Below, piece by piece: positions 2,434 to 61,357 of a stretch of 64,000 nt of DNA; position 1 is the first letter of the stretch, and each line of letters opens with the position of its first letter. Source of the stretch: an uncultured Bacteroidales bacterium (GTDB lineage Bacteria; Bacteroidota; Bacteroidia; Bacteroidales; VadinHA17). Position numbers and translations under genes: made by a program. Under the pieces are notes generated by a model. That model was not told the DNA's origin. It did not search any database and saw only the letters and a list, made by a program, of their open reading frames with translations. The stretch lies in assembly GCA_963844935.1 (NCBI GenBank), contig CAWJQH010000003.1:172430-236429 (forward strand), read 5' to 3'.

Positions 2434-2449
2434 AATGTGTTTTGAGCCT

Positions 2450-4276
2450 ATGAAGAACCAACTCAGGAGTGCAGCAACGGTAACCGGCAGGAACATGGCC
2501 GGTGCAAGAAGTCTCTGGCGGGCCAACGGCATGAAAGAAGAACACTTCGGTAAACCGGTCATTGCCATTGTCAACTCATTTTCCCAGTTCGTTCCGGGGC
2601 ATGTCCATCTGCACAGTATTGGTCAGGTCATTAAGGAGGAGATCGGGAAACATGGCCTTTTCGCAGCTGAATTCAATACAATAGCCATCGATGACGGAAT
2701 TGCGATGGGCCACGAAGGGATGCTCTATTCCTTACCCTCCAGGGAACTCATTGCCGACAGTGTCGAGTATGTGTGCAACGCCCACCGGGCAGATGCAATG
2801 ATATGTATCAGTAACTGCGACAAGATCACTCCCGGTATGCTGATGGCTGCCATGAGGCTGAACATACCGGCGGTTTTTGTTTCGGGAGGCCCGATGGAGG
2901 CCGGGAATCACAATAACAGGTCGCTTGACCTGATAGATGCGATGGTGTCTGCTGCCGACAGCACCGTGAGTGATTCAGACCTGAATGATATTGAAATGGC
3001 TGCCTGTCCTACCTGCGGGTCATGTTCAGGCATGTTCACGGCGAATTCAATGAATTGCCTGAACGAAGCGCTGGGCCTTGCACTTCCGGGCAATGGAACA
3101 ATAGTTGCCACCCACCGGAACCGCATGAGACTGTTTGAAAGAGCAGCGGGGCTGATTGTGGACCTGGCGAACAGATACTACTCAGAGGGTGATGACACAG
3201 TACTTCCAAGGTCAATTGCAACCAGGGAAGCCTTTAAAAACGCCATGTCGCTTGACATTGCAATGGGAGGATCGACAAACACCGTTCTTCACCTCCTGGC
3301 AATAGCGCATGAAGCCGGTGTTGATTTTTCAATGAAGGATATTGATGAACTTTCCCGGGAAGTCCCCACCATATGCAAAGTCTCCCCCAGTTCACATTAC
3401 CATATCCAGGATGTAAACCGTGCCGGCGGTATTTTTGCCATTCTTGGAGAATTGGAGCGAAACAATCTGATAGACAGCTCTGTAAGAAGGATAGACTATC
3501 CTACTCTTCATGAAGCAATTTCTGAATGGGATATTTCCGGAGATAATGCATTGCCCCTCGCATTTGATTACTGCAAAAGCGCCCCGGGAATGAAGAGAAG
3601 CCTTGAAATGGCTTCGCATGATACTCTTTACGACACGCTTGATACTGACCGGAAAAACGGATGCATAAGAAGTGTAAAATATCCTTATAACAAGGAAGGC
3701 GGCCTTGCTGTCCTTTACGGAAACATTGCGAAAAACGGCTGTATAGTCAAAACCGCAGGCATCGACCCTTCAATGTTTACATTTTCAGGCCATGCGGTGA
3801 TCTTCGAATCCCAGGAAGAAGCCGTGGAAGGAATACTGAATGATACTGTGGGCGCAGGAGAAGTTATCGTGATCAGGTACGAAGGTCCGAAAGGAGGGCC
3901 AGGTATGCAGGAGATGCTTTACCCTACATCATATCTGAAATCCAGGGGGCTTGACAGGAAATGTGCATTGATAACCGATGGCCGCTTTTCAGGAGGCACC
4001 TCGGGATTGTCTGTCGGTCATATCTCTCCGGAAGCAGCAGCAAAAGGAGGAATTGCAATTCTCAGGACAGGTGATCAGGTTGATATTGATATAGCAAACC
4101 GGAAGATAAATGTAAACCTTTCTGATAATGAGATCATTAAAAGGCATCAGGAGGAGGAGGCAAAGGGAGAAATGGCCTACAGGCCGAAAAACCGGCGGCG
4201 TGAAATACCATCTTCGCTGAAAGCTTATGCTGCAACGGTAAGTTCAGCTGACAGGGGGGCGGTGAGGATAATATGA
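2450..4276 (+). CDS. ilvD: dihydroxy-acid dehydratase
   Basis: [42 protein letters not shown] (Fe-S cysteines) and TDGRFSGGT. Track ORF starts at 2435; ATG 2450 (MKNQLRS) is preferred. Confidence 0.95.
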
Positions 4277-4315
4277 AGCATGGGGCATAGGGCAAGGAGC
4301 ATGGGGATTAAATCA

Positions 4316-4394
4316 GGCAATAGGCAGTAGAGGGCCGAGCGTTAAATCCCGACATGTTATGTCGGGATAGCGAAGGAGCCGGTTTGCAGGGGAG
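4316..4394. repeat. structured intergenic repeat, family 1, copy 1 (ilvD-ilvB spacer)
   Basis: The flanks GGCAATAGGCAGTAGAGGGCCGAG and TAGCGAAGGAGCCGGTTTGCAGGGGAG are nearly identical to 34768-34845. The central hairpin is a 9-bp stem with a 3-nt loop (4347-4355 / 4359-4367). Confidence 0.7.
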
Positions 4395-4454
4395 ACAAGG
4401 AGCACGGGGCACGGAGCAAAGAGATAAAAGAATGTGGACTAAGTCAGGATTAAA

Positions 4455-6194
4455 ATGAAGAAAAACAAGGAGTTAAATACAACAGTGGCGACTGGTAAGG
4501 ATCAGGAGCAGATTTCAGGAGCTGAGGCGCTTCTCAGGTGCCTTATCGAGGAAGGTGTGGATACTGTATTCGGTTACCCGGGAGGCGCCATCATGCCTGT
4601 CTATGACAAACTGCTTGATTATGAAGATAAGATCAGGCATATACTCACCCGTCACGAACAGGGAGCTGCACATGCAGCCCAGGCATATGCAATGGTTACC
4701 GGAAAACCCGGGGTCTGTTTCGCAACTTCCGGTCCCGGGGCAACCAACCTGGTAACGGGTATTGCCAATGCTTTCCTTGATTCAGTGCCTGTCGTTTTCA
4801 TCACTGCCCAGGTTGTATCAAACCTGATTGGTACTGACGCATTTCAGGAGACTGACATTCTTGGTGTTTCAATGCCTGTCACAAAATGGAACTGCCAGAT
4901 CAAAAGGCCGGAGGATCTGCCCGACACAATAGCAAAGGCATTCTACATTGCAAAGTCAGGCCGTCCCGGACCGGTGCTGGTTGACGTGGCCAAGGACGCC
5001 CAGATTGAAAAACTCAGTTTCAGGTACAGCAAATGTGAATACCTGAGAAGCTATAATCCCAGGATACCATTGCATACCAGGGAGATAGAGTCGGCAGCCA
5101 TTATGATCAACCATGCCGAGAAACCGTTAATTCTTGCCGGCCATGGTGTCCTGTTGTCGGGTGCCGAGAATGAACTAAAGGAACTGGCCGAGAAAGCCGG
5201 AATTCCTGTTGCCCTTACGCTGCTTGGACTCTCAGCCTTTCCCTACGGTCACAGACTGTATGCCGGGATGCTCGGCATGCACGGAAACCTCGGCCCGAAT
5301 GTTCTCACAAATGAGGCTGACCTGATTATTGCCATCGGAATGCGTTTTGATGACCGTGTGACAGGCAACCTGAAGAAATATGCAAAGAACGCAAGGATAA
5401 TACACATCGAGATAGATGAAGCAGAGATCAATAAGAATGTGCAGGTCGATCTTGAAATAAATAATGATGCCCGTGAAGTGCTGCGTCACCTGATACCGCT
5501 GGTGAAGGAAAATTCTTTTGCAAGATGGATAAGGGAATTCAGGATATGTGATAAAACAGAATATGATAAAGTCATCAGGCCCGAGACAGAACCGGAATCG
5601 GGAGAGATCAGAATGGGGGAAGTAGTACGCCTCGTGTCAGACCTGACCCACGGAGATGCAATAATTGTTACTGATGTCGGGCAAAACCAGATGTCTGCCG
5701 CCCGGTATTATAAATTCAAAAATCCAAACAGCCTGGTGACATCCGGCGGAATGGGAACAATGGGCTTCGGACTCCCGGCTTCTGTAGGCGCCAAGATCGG
5801 AAGACCTGACAAACAGGTTGTGGTTTTCCTTGGTGACGGCGGTTTCCAGATGACAATCCAGGAGCTTGGAACCATCCTTCAGTACCAGGTCCCGGTCAAG
5901 ATAATTATCCTGAATAACAGTTTCCTCGGGATGGTGAGACAGTGGCAGGATATGTTCTACAATAAAAGGTATGCCTCGACTGCCCTTGTCAATCCCGATT
6001 TCCTGAAGATTGCAGAGGGATTTGGGATTAGCTCAAAAAGAGTAACGGAAAGAAAGGATCTTGAAAAAAATCTGGCTGAGATGCTTGCGGCCGATGGGCC
6101 CTACCTGCTTGACGTAACAATAAGCAAGGAGGCAAATGTGCTGCCAATGGTTGAACCGGGTTCATCAGTCTCTGATGTAAGATTGACAAATTAA
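4455..6194 (+). CDS. ilvB: acetolactate synthase, large (catalytic) subunit
   Basis: ThDP-enzyme motifs [38 protein letters not shown] and LGDGGFQM; 579 aa. Confidence 0.93.
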
Positions 6195-27048: not shown

Positions 27049-27070
27049 CATTTGATAATGATTTAAAAGT

Positions 27071-27120
27071 TCCCCCTTGATAAGGGGGAGTATCCCGGCC
27101 ATAGGTCGGGAGGAGGGGGT
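27071..27120. repeat. structured intergenic repeat, family 2, single-arm copy
   Basis: Two hairpins, CCCCCTT-GAT-AAGGGGG (27072-27088) and CCCGGCC-ATA-GGTCGGG (27094-27110), followed by the purine tail AGGAGGGGG. It is collinear with 49871-49920. Confidence 0.65.
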
Positions 27121-27131
27121 TATAAAATCTG

Positions 27132-33812: not shown

Positions 33813-34760
33813 ATGGTACGTCTGATCGCCCTCATCATTTCAATAGCGCTGCAGATTATTGCTGCCGTCATCGCCCTCCGCTTCATGAAGATGACAAGGT
33901 ACAGGCTCTCCTGGATACTGCTCTCCATCTCCTTCGTGCTGATGTCGCTGCGAACGATGATCCAGCTGATAGAGTACTTCCAGGGCAAGCCGTCCTTTGA
34001 GCTCACAATGATGGATGACTGGATGAATGTGCTGATATCTGTGTTGATTATTTCCGGCGTAGTTCTTATAAGGGAACTCTTCACATCTCTCAAGCGGGCT
34101 GAGACCGACAGGATGCGGTCTGACCGCAGGCTGCTCAACGCCATCATCACCACCGAGGAGACAGAGAAGAAGAGGTTTGCCAAGGATCTGCACGACGGGC
34201 TCGGACCTCTTTTATCCACCGTGAAAATGTCGCTCTCGGCTCTTACACCCATGGTGTCTGATGCCGTGGGCAAGGAGATTCTCGGCAACACCAACCATGT
34301 TGTCAACGAGGCTCTCAGTACAATCAAGGAGATAGCAAACAACATGAGCCCTCATGTGCTGACAAACCTCGGTGTTGCCAGCGCCATTAGCACCTTCGCT
34401 GCAAAAGTGAACCAGACAAGGAGCGTCAGCATTGATTTCCGGACAAACATGGAAGGTGAACGGTTTGACACGGACAAGGAGGTGGTGATCTACAGGGCAG
34501 CCTGCGAGCTGATCAACAACGGAATGAAACACTCGGGAGCATCGAAGATTGAAATGGATCTGCACCGCCATCAAAAAATTATTACCTTGCAGTATCTTGA
34601 TAACGGGAGGGGATTTGACACAGAGATGCTGACCTCGGAAGAAGCTGTGGGCATGGGAATTCCGAACATCGAGACAAGGGTGAGGGCAGTGGACGGAGTA
34701 TTCCTGATAGAGAGCTCGAAGGGTAAGGGAACAAGCGCACTGATCAGGGTCAATTATTAA
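33813..34760 (+). CDS. membrane sensor histidine kinase (HisKA_3 / NarL-partner type)
   Basis: Three N-terminal TM helices, the H-box FAKDLHDGLGPLL, and HATPase_c boxes (ELINNGMKHSGA, DNGRGF, GMGIPNI). Confidence 0.85.
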   Translation: MVRLIALIISIALQIIAAVIALRFMKMTRYRLSWILLSISFVLMSLRTMIQLIEYFQGKPSFELTMMDDWMNVLISVLIISGVVLIRELFTSLKRAETDRMRSDRRLLNAIITTEETEKKRFAKDLHDGLGPLLSTVKMSLSALTPMVSDAVGKEILGNTNHVVNEALSTIKEIANNMSPHVLTNLGVASAISTFAAKVNQTRSVSIDFRTNMEGERFDTDKEVVIYRAACELINNGMKHSGASKIEMDLHRHQKIITLQYLDNGRGFDTEMLTSEEAVGMGIPNIETRVRAVDGVFLIESSKGKGTSALIRVNY

Positions 34761-34767
34761 GGCAGTA

Positions 34768-34845
34768 GGCAATAGGCAGTAGAGGGCCGAGAGTAAATAA
34801 TTTGCCCGGTGGGCAAATTTAGCGAGGAGCCAGATTGCAGGGGAG
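34768..34845. repeat. structured intergenic repeat, family 1, copy 2 (kinase - regulator spacer)
   Basis: Same flanks as 4316-4394. The central hairpin AATTTGCCC-GGT-GGGCAAATT (34799-34819) has the same 9-bp stem and 3-nt loop geometry but an unrelated sequence. Confidence 0.7.
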
Positions 34846-34914
34846 GTAAAGGGTAAGTGCAGAGGGCATGGATAAAAATATATTGCCCGCAGGGCATTAA
34901 GTATTGCAGAAAAA

Positions 34915-35556
34915 ATGGATAAAATAAGAATTGCACTCGCTGATGACCATCAGCTGTTCAGGAACGGACTGAAGATTTTACTGGGTAGCTTCAGTGAGTT
35001 TGAGGTGGTAGCCGAAGCTTCCAACGGCAATGAGATTCTGAGAGCCATGGAGACCAGCCCCTCCGATATCGTACTCATGGATATAAGCATGCCGGAGATG
35101 GACGGAGTGGAGGCAACGGGCATACTGTCGCGTCAGTTTCCCGGTACAAGAGTGATTGCTCTTTCAATGTACGGCGAAGAAGAATATTACTACAGGATGA
35201 TTGATGCCGGCGCAAAGGGCTTTATCCTCAAAGACTCAGACATAACCGACGTGCATGACGCAATCATCGCAGTATTCAAAGGCGGCAATTACTTCTCCCA
35301 GGAACTGCTCTACCATGTAATCAACCGCATCAAGAACAGGGAACAGGAGGTAAAGAGCTCAAGCCTCTCGAAACGTGAGAAGGAGATACTGCTGAAGATC
35401 TGTGAAGGACTTTCAAACCATGAAATTGCCGACACACTCTTCATAAGCAAACGCACCGTCGACAAGCACCGTGCCAACCTCCTGGCAAAGACGGGCTCAA
35501 AGAATACAGCCAGCCTCATTCTGTACGCCATAAAAAACAGGCTGATAGAGATCTGA
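34915..35556 (+). CDS. NarL/LuxR-family response regulator
   Basis: REC domain (IALADDH, VLMDISMPEMDG) plus a C-terminal LuxR HTH (LSKREKEILLKICEGLSNHEIADTLFISKRTVDKHRANLLAK). Confidence 0.9.
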   Translation: MDKIRIALADDHQLFRNGLKILLGSFSEFEVVAEASNGNEILRAMETSPSDIVLMDISMPEMDGVEATGILSRQFPGTRVIALSMYGEEEYYYRMIDAGAKGFILKDSDITDVHDAIIAVFKGGNYFSQELLYHVINRIKNREQEVKSSSLSKREKEILLKICEGLSNHEIADTLFISKRTVDKHRANLLAKTGSKNTASLILYAIKNRLIEI

Positions 35557-39732: not shown

Positions 39733-40755
39733 ATGTCAGATAACACCGCTTCTGCCCACGGAAATCCTATCGATGCGGTAATCCTGTGGGTTGACGGCAA
39801 TGACATCAGGATTACAGAAAAAAGGAATCATTACCTTTCTCTGGAAAATAAAGCCGGTGCCCACCAGGGAGCTCTTCCGACACGTTTCGCATCATCAGAC
39901 GAAATAAGGTATTGTGTCCTGTCAATTTTAACCTTTGCTCCTTTTATCAGGAATATATTCATTGTCACCGATGAACAGGACCCTGATCTTTATGATGATG
40001 TCAGGGCCAGGTTTCCCGAAAAGGCGGACTGTCTGAAAATCGTTGACCACAAGGAGATCTTCAGGGGTTACGAGCAGTATCTTCCGACTTTCAACAGCTC
40101 GTCAATTCAGGCTCTGATCTGGAGAATTGAAGGGCTCTCAGAAAGATTCATCTATTTTAATGATGATGTGATTCTTATAAGGGAAACAAAGGCCGGGGAC
40201 TGGTTTGCAGGTGAGAGCCCGGTTCTGATGGGCAAGTGGCTGTTCCCTCCCTACAGGAGGATCGCCGGAATTAACCTGAAAGCCTTAATAAACAAATATA
40301 TACTGAACAACAAGGATCACCAGCCCAGGATCTCATTTTATATCCGCCAGTGGAAGAGTGCGGTTGTGCTGGGGATGAAAGGGCGGTATTTTTTCCATGA
40401 TCACACACCTCATCCGATGAGGATAAAAACGCTTGAGAATTTTTTCGCAGCGAACAGGGAGCTGCTTGAAAAAACCATTTCATACCGCTTCAGGGATTCC
40501 GGGCAGATAATTGCCCCCTCTGTAGCCTATCATCTTGAGATCCTAAACGGCAACAGAAATTATGGAAAACTCAGGCTGGGGTATTTCCATCCTTACTATT
40601 CGGAGAATCGACTGAACAGAAGAATCAAACGCTGCATGAGTGACTCCCGGATTAAATTTATCTGCATTCAGAGCATAGAGCTGCTCAGCAGCAGGCAGCG
40701 GGAAAAAATTTTCAGGTGGATGGATACAATTTTAAATTTGCAACCAAAAACATGA
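39733..40755 (+). CDS. Stealth-family hexose-1-phosphoryltransferase (capsule phosphotransferase-like), paralog 1
   Basis: Stealth conserved regions: DAVILWVDGND (CR1), TRFASSDEIRYCVLSILTFAPFIRNIFIVTDEQ (CR2), and LPTFNSSSIQALIWRIEGLSERFIYFNDD (CR3). Confidence 0.8.
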   Translation: MSDNTASAHGNPIDAVILWVDGNDIRITEKRNHYLSLENKAGAHQGALPTRFASSDEIRYCVLSILTFAPFIRNIFIVTDEQDPDLYDDVRARFPEKADCLKIVDHKEIFRGYEQYLPTFNSSSIQALIWRIEGLSERFIYFNDDVILIRETKAGDWFAGESPVLMGKWLFPPYRRIAGINLKALINKYILNNKDHQPRISFYIRQWKSAVVLGMKGRYFFHDHTPHPMRIKTLENFFAANRELLEKTISYRFRDSGQIIAPSVAYHLEILNGNRNYGKLRLGYFHPYYSENRLNRRIKRCMSDSRIKFICIQSIELLSSRQREKIFRWMDTILNLQPKT

Positions 40756-41771
40756 TTTCCATGACAAGCAACAGACCTTCTGAAGCCAATCCTCCCATTG
40801 ATGTGGTGATAGCCTGGGTTGACGGCGATGACCCTAAACTGGCACAGAAGAGAAGCAATTATATTCATGGGACAGACATTCCCTTGGGGTCAGGTGCGCA
40901 CTCAACGCGTTTTGCCTCGTCGAATGAAATCCGTTATTGCGTCCTGTCTGTCCTGAGATTTGCCCCGTTTGTCAGGAACATCTTCATTGTCACCGATGAG
41001 CAGGATCCCGGAATCCATGATGACGTGCGAAAATATTTTCCTGAAAGGCTTGAATCAATAAGGATAGTTGATCATAAAGAGATCTTTGAGGGATACGAAA
41101 ACTGTTTGCCGACCTTCAACAGCATCTCCATTGCGAATATGATATGGAGAATAAAAGGCCTCTCTGAAAATTTTGTCTATTTCAATGATGATACTTTCCT
41201 GATAAGCAGCATAAAGCCCGAAGAGTGGTTCGTTAACGGCAGGCCTGTATTACGTGGCAGATGGGTCGCGGCAACAACTCCAAGGGCAATGTGGAACAGC
41301 ATCAGGATTGCATTCAACAGGCGTCTTCTCGGTAAAAAAGACTTTGAACCAAGGGCTTCCTTCCATCTGGGTCAGTGGAATGCTGCTGCATTGCTCGGAT
41401 TTAAATTCAGGTATTTCACAAACAGCCACACGCCGCACTCAGTCAACCGGAAGCTGGTTGAAGATTATTTCAGCAAAAACGACTCGGTCCTCAGGAAAAA
41501 CATTTCATTTCGTTTCCGCGACCATTCACAGTTCACTTTCATCTCACTTTCAAATCATCTGCAGCTTCTTGCCGGCAACAGGCATATTGCCGGACCGGCC
41601 CTGGCTTACCTTAAACCTCAGGGCCATGCAGATGATTACGTGGACAGGAAAATAGCTCTGTGTGAAAACAACCCGGTCATCAGGTTCATGTGCATTCAGG
41701 GCCTTGAAATGTGCAGAAATGAAGACCGGGAGAAGCTGTTCAGTTGGCTCGACAGGAGACTGGAGCTTTGA
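40752..41771 (+). CDS. Stealth-family hexose-1-phosphoryltransferase, paralog 2
   Basis: Same CR1-CR3 motifs (DVVIAWVDGDD; TRFASSNEIRYCVLSVLRFAPFVRNIFIVTDEQ; LPTFNSISIANMIWRIKGLSENFVYFNDD). It is collinear with paralog 1, and ATG 40752 overlaps the paralog 1 stop (ATGA). Confidence 0.8.
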   Translation: MISMTSNRPSEANPPIDVVIAWVDGDDPKLAQKRSNYIHGTDIPLGSGAHSTRFASSNEIRYCVLSVLRFAPFVRNIFIVTDEQDPGIHDDVRKYFPERLESIRIVDHKEIFEGYENCLPTFNSISIANMIWRIKGLSENFVYFNDDTFLISSIKPEEWFVNGRPVLRGRWVAATTPRAMWNSIRIAFNRRLLGKKDFEPRASFHLGQWNAAALLGFKFRYFTNSHTPHSVNRKLVEDYFSKNDSVLRKNISFRFRDHSQFTFISLSNHLQLLAGNRHIAGPALAYLKPQGHADDYVDRKIALCENNPVIRFMCIQGLEMCRNEDREKLFSWLDRRLEL

Positions 41772-49771: not shown

Positions 49772-49931
49772 GTCTCAAAAGTATATTTACCACCCCGTCC
49801 CGACCCTTCGGTCGGGGCACCCCTCCTTAAAAAAGGAGGGGAAATGTCTGAATTTAAATATTTTAACTTTCTCCTCCTTGATAAGGAGGAGTACTCCCGC
49901 AGAGCGGGAGGGAGGAGGTGACTTTTGAGAC
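49772..49931. repeat. ~160-bp composite palindromic element (family 2, two inverted arms, four local hairpins)
   Basis: The outer 11-bp inverted repeat is perfect: GTCTCAAAAGT (49772-49782) / ACTTTTGAGAC (49921-49931). The arms 49791-49841 and 49871-49920 are imperfect reverse complements of each other. Each arm carries two hairpins, and the spacer is 29 nt and AT-rich. Confidence 0.7.
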
Positions 49932-61240: not shown

Positions 61241-61248
61241 GTCTTCCG

Positions 61249-61280
61249 GATTTGCGATTTGCGATTTGCGATTTGCGATT
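61249..61280. repeat. heptamer tandem array (GATTTGC x 4.6)
   Basis: GATTTGC is repeated perfectly four times plus a partial copy, starting 8 nt after the metG stop. Confidence 0.9.
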
Positions 61281-61321
61281 AAATGCTTCCGATGACTGAC
61301 TTGCGAATTAGCTGACCCTTA

Positions 61322-61356
61322 AATTCTTAATTCTTAACTCTTAATTCTTAATTCCC
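61322..61356. repeat. heptamer tandem array (AATTCTT x 5, two variant units)
   Basis: AATTCTT AATTCTT AACTCTT AATTCTT AATTCCC, abutting the stop codon of the convergent SPOR gene. Confidence 0.9.
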
Positions 61357-61357
61357 A

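Follow-up and report, generated by a model that had tools for sequence, protein, structure and literature searches.

The spacer between a sensor histidine kinase gene and a response regulator gene, at positions 34761-34914 of the window (the whole stretch of DNA that was analysed, 64,000 nucleotides from an uncultured Bacteroidales bacterium), is a mosaic of small repeats, the centre of which, 34783-34845, is one copy of a repeated element. This core is probably a dispersed, non-autonomous mobile element of the REP/MITE kind that is co-transcribed as an intercistronic hairpin. The hairpin is kept by compensatory changes, and the element adjoins unrelated genes in at least 26 Bacteroidales species; sequence comparison shows sites that are otherwise orthologous with and without it.

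The initial annotation had remarked on a gap of 154 nt between kinase and regulator. The gap was confirmed, with open reading frames at 33813..34760 (+) and 34915..35556 (+) on either side and Pfam domains that fit a kinase and a regulator. The features of the spacer and its neighbours, together with the other copy of the element in the window, are as follows.

33813..34760, + strand: upstream gene, sensor histidine kinase with HisKA_3 and HATPase_c domains (Pfam); stop codon TAA at 34758-34760.
34761..34782, + strand: heptamer array GGCAGTA GGCAATA GGCAGTA(G); an array without the core lies at the same site in loci L169, L170 and L171.
34783..34845, + strand: family-1 core, AGGGCCGAG...GCAGGGGAG, 63 nt; a discrete insertion relative to L169, L170 and L171; 94.2 bits with model R1.
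34799..34819, + strand: central hairpin of the core, 9 bp with a GGU triloop; covariation over 43 copies.
34846..34876, + strand: degenerate G/A-rich tract, GTAAAGG GTAAGTG CAGAGGG CATGGAT..., loosely heptameric, without a TRF call.
34877..34914, + strand: 3' module, made up of a small hairpin, TGCCC-GCA-GGGCA, at 34884-34896 and then TTAAGTATTGCAGAAAAA up to the regulator ATG.
34915..35556, + strand: downstream gene, NarL/LuxR-type response regulator with Response_reg and GerE domains (Pfam).
4316..4394, + strand: other window copy of the element, in the spacer between ilvD (2435-4276) and ilvB (4455-6194); 97.8 bits with model R1.

Read in order, the spacer consists of the kinase TAA, the heptamers, G followed by AGGGCCGAGAGTAAAT, the hairpin AATTTGCCC-GGT-GGGCAAATT, TAGCGAGGAGCCAGATTGCAGGGGAG, the G/A-rich tract, the small hairpin and TTAAGTATTGCAGAAAAA, and then the regulator ATG. 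The heptamers that had been noticed at the spacer start occupy 34761-34781 and were called by TRF as a period-7 repeat of 3.3 copies (34760-34782). They place TAG in all three frames no more than 21 nt past the kinase stop, and GTAG (34779-34782) closes the array immediately 5' of the core. The central hairpin, described at the outset as a 9-bp stem with a 3-nt loop, was recovered at 34799-34819 with the arms AATTTGCCC and GGGCAAATT. Two further details needed amendment: the trailing heptamers, first read as GGTAAAG GGTAAGT GCAGAGG GCATGGA, form a tract that is only loosely heptameric and looks like decayed GGRGCAY arrays of relatives, with no TRF call, while the second small hairpin exists but lies at 34884-34896 and not at 34880-34892. 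The 3' module that contains this hairpin is kept in many orthologous junctions in which the rest of the spacer differs.

The element had been taken to be the second copy of a repeat family, and this holds: the 25-mer AGGCAATAGGCAGTAGAGGGCCGAG occurs exactly twice in the window, at 4315 and 34767, both times on the + strand and with 0 occurrences expected (100 shuffles), and a right flank, TAGCGA.GGAGCC...TTGCAGGGGAG, is also common to both copies. The copy between ilvD and ilvB begins with GGCAATA GGCAGTA, followed by a core at 4331-4394 with a hairpin at 4346-4368 (TCCCGACAT-GTT-ATGTCGGGA), and is flanked by GGRGCAY heptamers at 4277-4309 and 4399-4418. The hairpins of the two copies are wholly different in sequence and the same in shape, and this is the most informative feature of the pair. 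The 64-kb window holds only these two copies, and no inverted pairs of the core (REPINs) were found.

Period-7 repeats were called by TRF at 34760-34782, 4399-4418, 61249-61280 and 61322-61354. A third mosaic spacer, at 61241-61357, separates convergent genes and carries no family-1 core; (GATTTGC)4 stands directly past the stop of the + gene and, on the other strand, GGCAATAGTG and (AAGAATT)n stand directly past the stop of the - gene, so that each array is sense to its own upstream gene. A family of two-hairpin elements (TCCYCCTTGATAAGGRGGAG, then TAYCCCGS...SCGGGAGG, then a closing GGAGG) was also seen, at 27068-27125 and 49870-49925 of the window and at L170:2390-2505; it is absent in L169 (1340-1440). 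Direct repeats at 39765-40001 and 40793-41026 (families D1 and D3), with 74-78% identity and a spacing of about 1025 nt, most likely represent two adjacent paralogous genes.

Species-representative genomes were scanned with the exact 17-mer GGCAGTAGAGGGCCGAG, which returned 112 loci, about half of them spurious, in the coding DNA of taxa that are unrelated and for the most part GC-rich. The full element was present at about 50 loci, all in 26 MAGs assigned to Bacteroidales, Rikenellaceae, 'Rikenella sp.' or Bacteroidia, with up to eight exact-17-mer copies in one MAG (CAVYRA01); because the exact 17-mer was demanded, the copy and MAG counts are minima, and the search pattern itself determined the left flank. 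The earlier remark that one element lies beside functionally unrelated genes, made on two operons, now extends to these roughly 50 copies, which adjoin unrelated genes and a tRNA. Their consensus is (GGCARTA)n GAGGGCCGAGCGTTAAG, then AAATGACCC-GGT-GGGTCATTT, then YAGCGAAGGAGCCRGNTTGCAGGGRAGG, often continued by GCARTAG(TG) and further heptamer arrays, and the element unit of about 63 nt can be written as AGGGCCGAG ... 10-bp hairpin with GGU loop ... AGCGAAGGAGCC.G.TTGCAGGGGAG. The kinase itself has hundreds of close homologues in metagenomes, the few named ones being 'MAG: Bacteroidales bacterium'.

Rfam 15 gave no match at the gathering score over the whole window, none at E<=10 around 34700-34960, and around 4230-4480 (E<=10) a chance lncRNA match only, at 8.7 bits. 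The right flank had 0 matches in viral contigs, and literature searches for the sequences of the element found no paper that contains them. At L108:2600-2945 a diverged core (GGCAGGGTCTGGCG...CAGCCAGGGGCCGGATTGCAGGGAAGG) lies within a 159-nt tandem duplication. The opening 12 nt of the neighbouring tRNA-Leu gene (GCCCGGATGGC) stand at the head of each unit, which suggests that the 5' edge of that gene was a site of duplication or insertion. At L094:5012-6650 two same-strand cores enclose a dinB-like polymerase gene and lie upstream of a gene with an error-prone-DnaE-like N-terminus (as judged by eye); behind both cores comes the same set of TCGATTT/GCAAATC/GACTTTA arrays.

An alignment of 43 copies was folded with RNAalifold into a 10-bp central helix with two short outer helices. 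Under this predicted structure, 97.3% of cells were paired; double-change cells numbered 74 against 8.5 in column shuffles, a value reached in 0 of 500 shuffles, and sliding the partner by 1-3 columns brought the paired cells down to 23-46%. Compensatory changes were found at 10/10 pairs of the central helix. The outer helices (GCAG/UUGC, GGC/GCC and CGUU/AGCG) showed no covariation and, being invariant, were neither supported nor refuted; for CGUU/AGCG, inspection by eye gave about three consistent and five inconsistent variants. At variable stem positions, 12 G-U cells against 2 C-A cells point to + as the folding strand. The loop is GGT in 33/43 copies, and the unpaired flanks are more conserved than the stem, which recurs in several types (AAATGACCC, AATTGCCC, TCCCGACAT, AAAAATCC and AGTCAGCCC) and is cleanly lost in some copies (L117, L106).

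The core flanks at 34786-34798 and 34820-34832, GGC-C-GA-G-CGUU and AGCG-AAG-GA-GCC, could pair as GGC/GCC with tandem G-A/A-G pairs in a purine-rich internal loop. A K-turn was rejected on inspection by hand, its bulge being 1 nt rather than 3 and the next pair G-G, and an SRP-like resemblance of the flanks also failed on inspection. A coding reading was discarded, as period 7 breaks the frame and the sole ATG lies in one hairpin subtype, and a sigma-70 promoter match at 34773-34801 was set aside as weak (9/12) and not of the Bacteroidetes promoter type.

A stable hairpin just downstream of genes also raises the question of an intrinsic terminator or attenuator between kinase and regulator, by which partial termination would set their ratio. 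The excess of convergent over divergent regions (15 versus 3) and a copy behind a tRNA gene would agree with this, as would the commonest subtype, in which the lower stem is A/U-rich (AAAUGACCC...GGGUCAUUUU) and, if opened, would leave three to four U after a GC-rich stem. However, a GC-rich hairpin directly followed by a U run is not what the copies contain: 40/43 have no T in the 8 nt past the 10-bp stem, and a terminator scan flagged the hairpin on the minus strand only. The TCCCGACAT subtype, including the ilvD-ilvB copy, has no U run of any kind, canonical hairpin-plus-T-run terminators occur in the same spacers upstream (L017) or downstream (L084) of the core, and the element lies within ilvD-ilvB and kinase-regulator pairs, which are expected to be co-transcribed. 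An intrinsic terminator was therefore rejected, and termination is a very improbable function of the core.

The history of the kinase-regulator spacer was followed through about 50 orthologous junctions, which range in length from 10 to 338 nt. The shortest are 10 nt (L005 and L006) and 13 nt (L004), and these belong to the most distant orthologues; by this comparison of sequences, the ancestral junction was tight, at 10-13 nt. The modules found at the junctions are heptamer arrays, long ones among them (GGCARTA, CAGTCGG, GACTGRA, AAGAATT, GGAGCAK and TTTGCGA), several kinds of hairpin core, and a small GC hairpin with AAAGYATTGTAG that is present in one to six copies and abuts the regulator start. 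Seven orthologous junctions have family-1 cores (the window, L119, L122, L125, L129, L132 and L149), and these differ in hairpin subtype and in the neighbouring arrays.

The module next to the regulator is a repeat in its own right. It has two parts, a GC-rich hairpin of 5-6 bp with a GYA or GAA loop and, behind it, (A/T)AAAG(T/C)ATTGTAG, and was seen at kinase-regulator junctions in the window (34877-34914), L001, L002, L123, L132, L137-L148, L156, L161, L170 and L171, as well as in L111. It lies 0-8 nt before the regulator start, with the ATG within TTGTATG in some loci, and its stems show compensatory changes (TGCCC/GGGCA, TGCGC/GCGCA, ACCTC/GAGGT and TTCCCC/GGGGAA). There are one to six tandem copies with a period of about 45-50 nt (one clear copy only in the window), and the module is retained at the junction even where everything else in the spacer has changed. 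One possibility is that it serves as a portable leader or 5'-end module.

The closest relatives, L169, L170 and L171, share about 90% nucleotide identity with the window in both genes, and their spacers, in which the array is kept, were compared with that of the window by eye. The L169 junction is 38 nt long and reads TAA (GGCARTA)4 GTG AAGAAAT ATG; those of L171 (91 nt) and L170 (115 nt) have the array and the 3' module without the core, and differ from each other in heptamer number even though L170 and L171 encode the same kinase protein (P0005). All three relatives read GGCAGTAG directly followed by TG, where the window reads GGCAGTAG, then AGGGCC...GGGGAG, then GT, which marks the core as a discrete 63-nt insertion past GTAG. 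Downstream of the regulator, two adjacent Stealth-domain genes are annotated in both L169 and L170.

Two other loci tell of similar differences. The ilvD-ilvB spacer is 178 nt in the window, 61 nt in L163, where it contains (GGCAGTA)2GTG and no core, and 29 nt in L164, where both of its ends are common to the longer window spacer; protein identity in this comparison is 96% for L163 and 92% for L164. In the spacer between a PALP-domain gene and a ribonucleotide reductase gene, L170 has a diverged core nested in the two-hairpin element and outside any heptamer array, the window has the two-hairpin element without the core (27068-27125), and L169 has neither. The initial annotation had proposed that the element either inserted into a formerly tight operon junction or sets differential expression of kinase and regulator. 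The insertion is upheld by the distant junctions of 10-13 nt, the core-free arrays of L169, L170 and L171, the empty and array-only states between ilvD and ilvB, and the roughly 50 further copies. It had also held that one and the same spacer at all orthologous junctions, with no empty sites and no other copies, would speak against this proposal, a picture that is contradicted on every count. Its suggestion of a target-site duplication was not borne out: filled and empty sites compared at three loci gave nothing longer than an ambiguous AG. The core ends AGGGCCGAG and GCAGGGGAG are not complementary and form no terminal inverted repeats, so the core has neither of these two features of a classical MITE.

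Such differences could in principle arise with no transposition, if replication slippage made and altered the arrays, and if the core passed from one locus to another through nothing but homologous recombination or gene conversion involving the arrays beside it. The core does usually lie within arrays, with GGCARTA on the left and, in 17/43 copies, GCRRTAG within about 20 nt on the right, and in L149 it is embedded in GGAGCAK arrays. Core-free arrays at the same sites (L169, L124, L162, L142 and L163), the different heptamer numbers beside an identical kinase protein in L170 and L171, and hairpins swapped between otherwise matching cores are all as this account would have it. It does not fit copies that have no array on one or both sides (L094:5012-5107, L008 and L019) or the L170 copy nested in a non-heptamer hairpin element, and it does not say how an array first came to a tight junction. 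Recombination as the sole means of spread is accordingly improbable. In copies from the 17-mer scan, GTAG was imposed by the search pattern; of about five copies recovered by means other than the left flank, two (L149 and L094:5012-5107) lack GTAG.

Placement was examined with gene calls from a codon-usage caller trained on the loci themselves. The upstream gene was on the same strand as the element in 35/45 cases; in 15 of these 35 its stop codon lay inside the element, and mostly it was within about 50 nt. Regions were tandem in 24 cases (17 sense and 7 antisense), convergent in 15 and divergent in 3, and the sense bias in tandem regions is modest, at about 13 versus 5 once orthologous pairs, which lower the number of independent cases, are taken out. 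Of the 15 convergent regions, 14 have the core directly next to the stop codon of whichever gene it is sense to, and in L078 and L084 the element stands 8-12 nt past tRNA-Thr. Neither local GC skew (21/44 positive, a weak test since skew over 8 kb is noisy) nor the predominant coding strand of the 8-kb locus (51%) showed any relation to orientation. Together with the same-strand upstream gene, this indicates a polarity that is local to the upstream gene end.

Conservation of the spacer was gauged against L119, in which the genes are about 93.5% identical to those of the window and 49/232 fourfold sites differ (21%). The spacer shows 8/154 differences (5.2%), only 2 of which fall in the array-plus-core stretch 34768-34848. 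Other intergenic DNA of the locus is about 90% identical, so that constraint on the spacer, at 5.2% against about 10%, is no weaker than on intergenic DNA in general. In blastn comparisons with the window, the spacers of L120, L121 and L001 had no similarity, at 88-90% gene identity. Ten orthologous MAG-locus pairs with the core in both members kept the core flanks at 70-86% flanking identity, and the hairpins of L078 and L084 differ by two adjacent compensated pairs. L058:2315-2411 and L095:6367-6456, at about 71% flanking identity, have nearly identical core flanks, including the rare GCGTATAA variant, and unrelated hairpins (AAAATGATCCGC...GCGGATCATTTT versus TCCCGACAT...ATGTCGGGA), which looks like an exchange of the hairpin and nothing else. 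Kept flanks with differing hairpins fit selection on the flanks and repeated insertion or conversion from a conserved pool alike.

It is possible, though on balance unlikely, that the core is instead a dedicated RNA motif that acts in cis and is under selection, such as a binding site for a protein in a 3'-UTR or between cistrons. The conserved, purine-rich flanks GAGGGCCGAGCG / AGCGAAGGAGCC and the GGU loop would then be functional, and the motif would have spread by recruitment and not by selfish transposition. Flanks more conserved than the stem, the frequent GGT loop, the near identity of the L058 and L095 flanks beside differing hairpins, and the G-U pairs on the sense strand would all be expected of such a motif, as would an orientation that tracks the adjacent upstream gene and not GC skew; between the window and L119, moreover, the spacer is about four times less diverged than fourfold sites. 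Several of these points have a second side, however, as the left flank was fixed by the way in which copies were found, flank identity between species could equally come from independent insertions or conversion between copies, and other intergenic DNA of the locus is conserved as well. The presence or absence of the core in near relatives, at a junction of 10 to 338 nt, argues for dispensability; furthermore, 7 of the 24 copies in tandem regions are antisense, and Rfam has no match.

On a more speculative reading, and a doubtful one, GTAG-ended heptamer arrays at gene ends would serve as landing pads for interchangeable hairpin 'cassettes'. A protein specific to the clade would recognise their conserved, purine-rich frame (GAGGGCCGAGCG / AGCGAAGGAGCC, with the GGU loop) in the sense RNA, making the cassettes portable 3'-UTR or intercistronic modules under selection, more than selfish DNA. 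If this were true, such modules would be reshuffled faster than genes diverge in uncultured Bacteroidales.

If the core is a mobile element of the REP/MITE kind, the preferred reading, it would be moved by an enzyme encoded elsewhere, for which a RAYT/IS200-like HUH enzyme acting 3' of GTAG is a first guess, and copies may be exchanged among themselves with the help of the flanking heptamer arrays. No Y1-like open reading frame or HUH...Y motif was found in about 1.3 Mb, a weak search in which a single-copy gene would be easily missed. Several observations run counter to this reading: GTAG stands 16 nt from the main stem and not 0-2 nt, as REP-like movement would have it, and IS200-like movement is expected to follow the replication strand, whereas the copies bear no relation to local GC skew. 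The two copies without GTAG, the low number of copies in the window, the lack of inverted pairs and of terminal inverted repeats, and the modest sense bias in tandem regions also count against it. The element would be co-transcribed with the kinase. As copies are oriented with the adjacent upstream gene and carry G-T pairs on the sense strand, it is probably as sense RNA, or as the top DNA strand, that the element is active. Most likely, the hairpin and its purine-rich flanks would act as a generic 3'-end or intercistronic module, which would shield the upstream message from 3'-to-5' decay and uncouple translation of the regulator, while the heptamers would close all three reading frames. Such a role would be generic, as the initial annotation had argued, and unrelated to the signal sensed by the two-component system; since spacers of anything between 10 and 338 nt occur naturally at the junction, the core is unlikely to be essential or specific to one pathway.

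Small repeats of this kind are well studied in Proteobacteria and hardly at all in Bacteroidota, the transcription and translation signals of which differ from the textbook model. A single operon junction offers a natural series, from 10 nt to the array only, to the array plus core, and up to 338 nt, and the core is a defined 63-nt insertion with known empty sites and a structural model backed by covariation. This makes it possible to test what moves the element in Bacteroidales, whether heptamer arrays are its targets, and whether an intercistronic hairpin alters the kinase:regulator ratio. There is also a warning for annotation, in that a long spacer within an operon of these MAGs is a mosaic of repeats, and should not be taken for an overlooked gene or a specific regulator.

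Several known families of small repeats can be compared with the core. The pneumococcal BOX and neisserial Correia elements are small, non-coding mosaic repeats of intergenic or intercistronic regions that are co-transcribed and form stable RNA structures; they can alter the expression of neighbouring genes, and their module number varies. They have defined terminal modules or inverted repeats, and Correia elements also a TA duplication, whereas the core is without terminal inverted repeats or a clear duplication. Palindrome-associated elements derived from IS200/IS605 likewise have no terminal inverted repeats and no target duplication, are recognised through a hairpin and insert 3' of a short specific motif. 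They differ in having hairpins at both ends and in following the replication strand, while the core has one central hairpin and no relation to GC skew.

The flanking arrays, though not the core, have the character of heptanucleotide repeats such as the cyanobacterial STRR, the LSSR, and the TAACTGA repeats of Beggiatoaceae, Cyanobacteria and Bacteroidetes (MacGregor 2015, PMC4679880). Common to both are intergenic period-7 arrays oriented relative to genes, stops in all three frames with frequent overlap of the upstream stop codon, several heptamer types per spacer, and long arrays in some Bacteroidetes (PMC4679880). The units found here are different (GGCARTA, CAGTCGG, GACTGRA, AAGAATT, GGAGCAK and GATTTGC), and the arrays lie at the 3' end of the upstream gene, in contrast to the Beggiatoa repeats just before start codons; they also host a structured hairpin core, of which none is described for those repeats (PMC4679880).

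The closest resemblance is to the REP/BIME elements, which are GTAG-tagged and moved by RAYT (TnpA-REP) (Di Nocera 2013, PMC3733652; Quentin 2018, PMC6006769). These, too, are short, multi-copy intergenic hairpin repeats with GTAG 5' of the structure; they fall into sub-families with complementary stem changes, in which G-T pairs hint at a role as RNA, and lie mainly downstream of genes in tandem and convergent spacers (PMC3733652). As with REP elements, the core has many intergenic copies, mostly downstream of genes, and stem sub-families with complementary changes, and both occur in mosaic spacers with other motifs and are present or absent at orthologous sites. GTAG REPs have been reported in Proteobacteria, Cyanobacteria, Chloroflexi and the PVC group, and not in Bacteroidetes (PMC3733652). 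Bacteroidetes have RAYTs of subclasses 2.4 and 2.6, with 'atypical secondary structures' beside those of subclass 2.6 (PMC6006769). A REP has a basal stem of 7-20 bases, all of them paired, with GTAG or GTGG 0-2 nt to its 5' side (PMC6006769), whereas the GTAG at 34779-34782 is 16 nt from the 9-10-bp stem that begins at 34799, and the only helix at its foot is the invariant 3-bp GGC/GCC. The conserved part of the core is its unpaired flanks and not its stem, and its copies are singletons, never inverted dimers, with an orientation tied to the upstream gene and no RAYT linked to them. The core is best described as a new REP/MITE-like variant that resides in the gene-end heptamer arrays of a clade of uncultured Bacteroidales.
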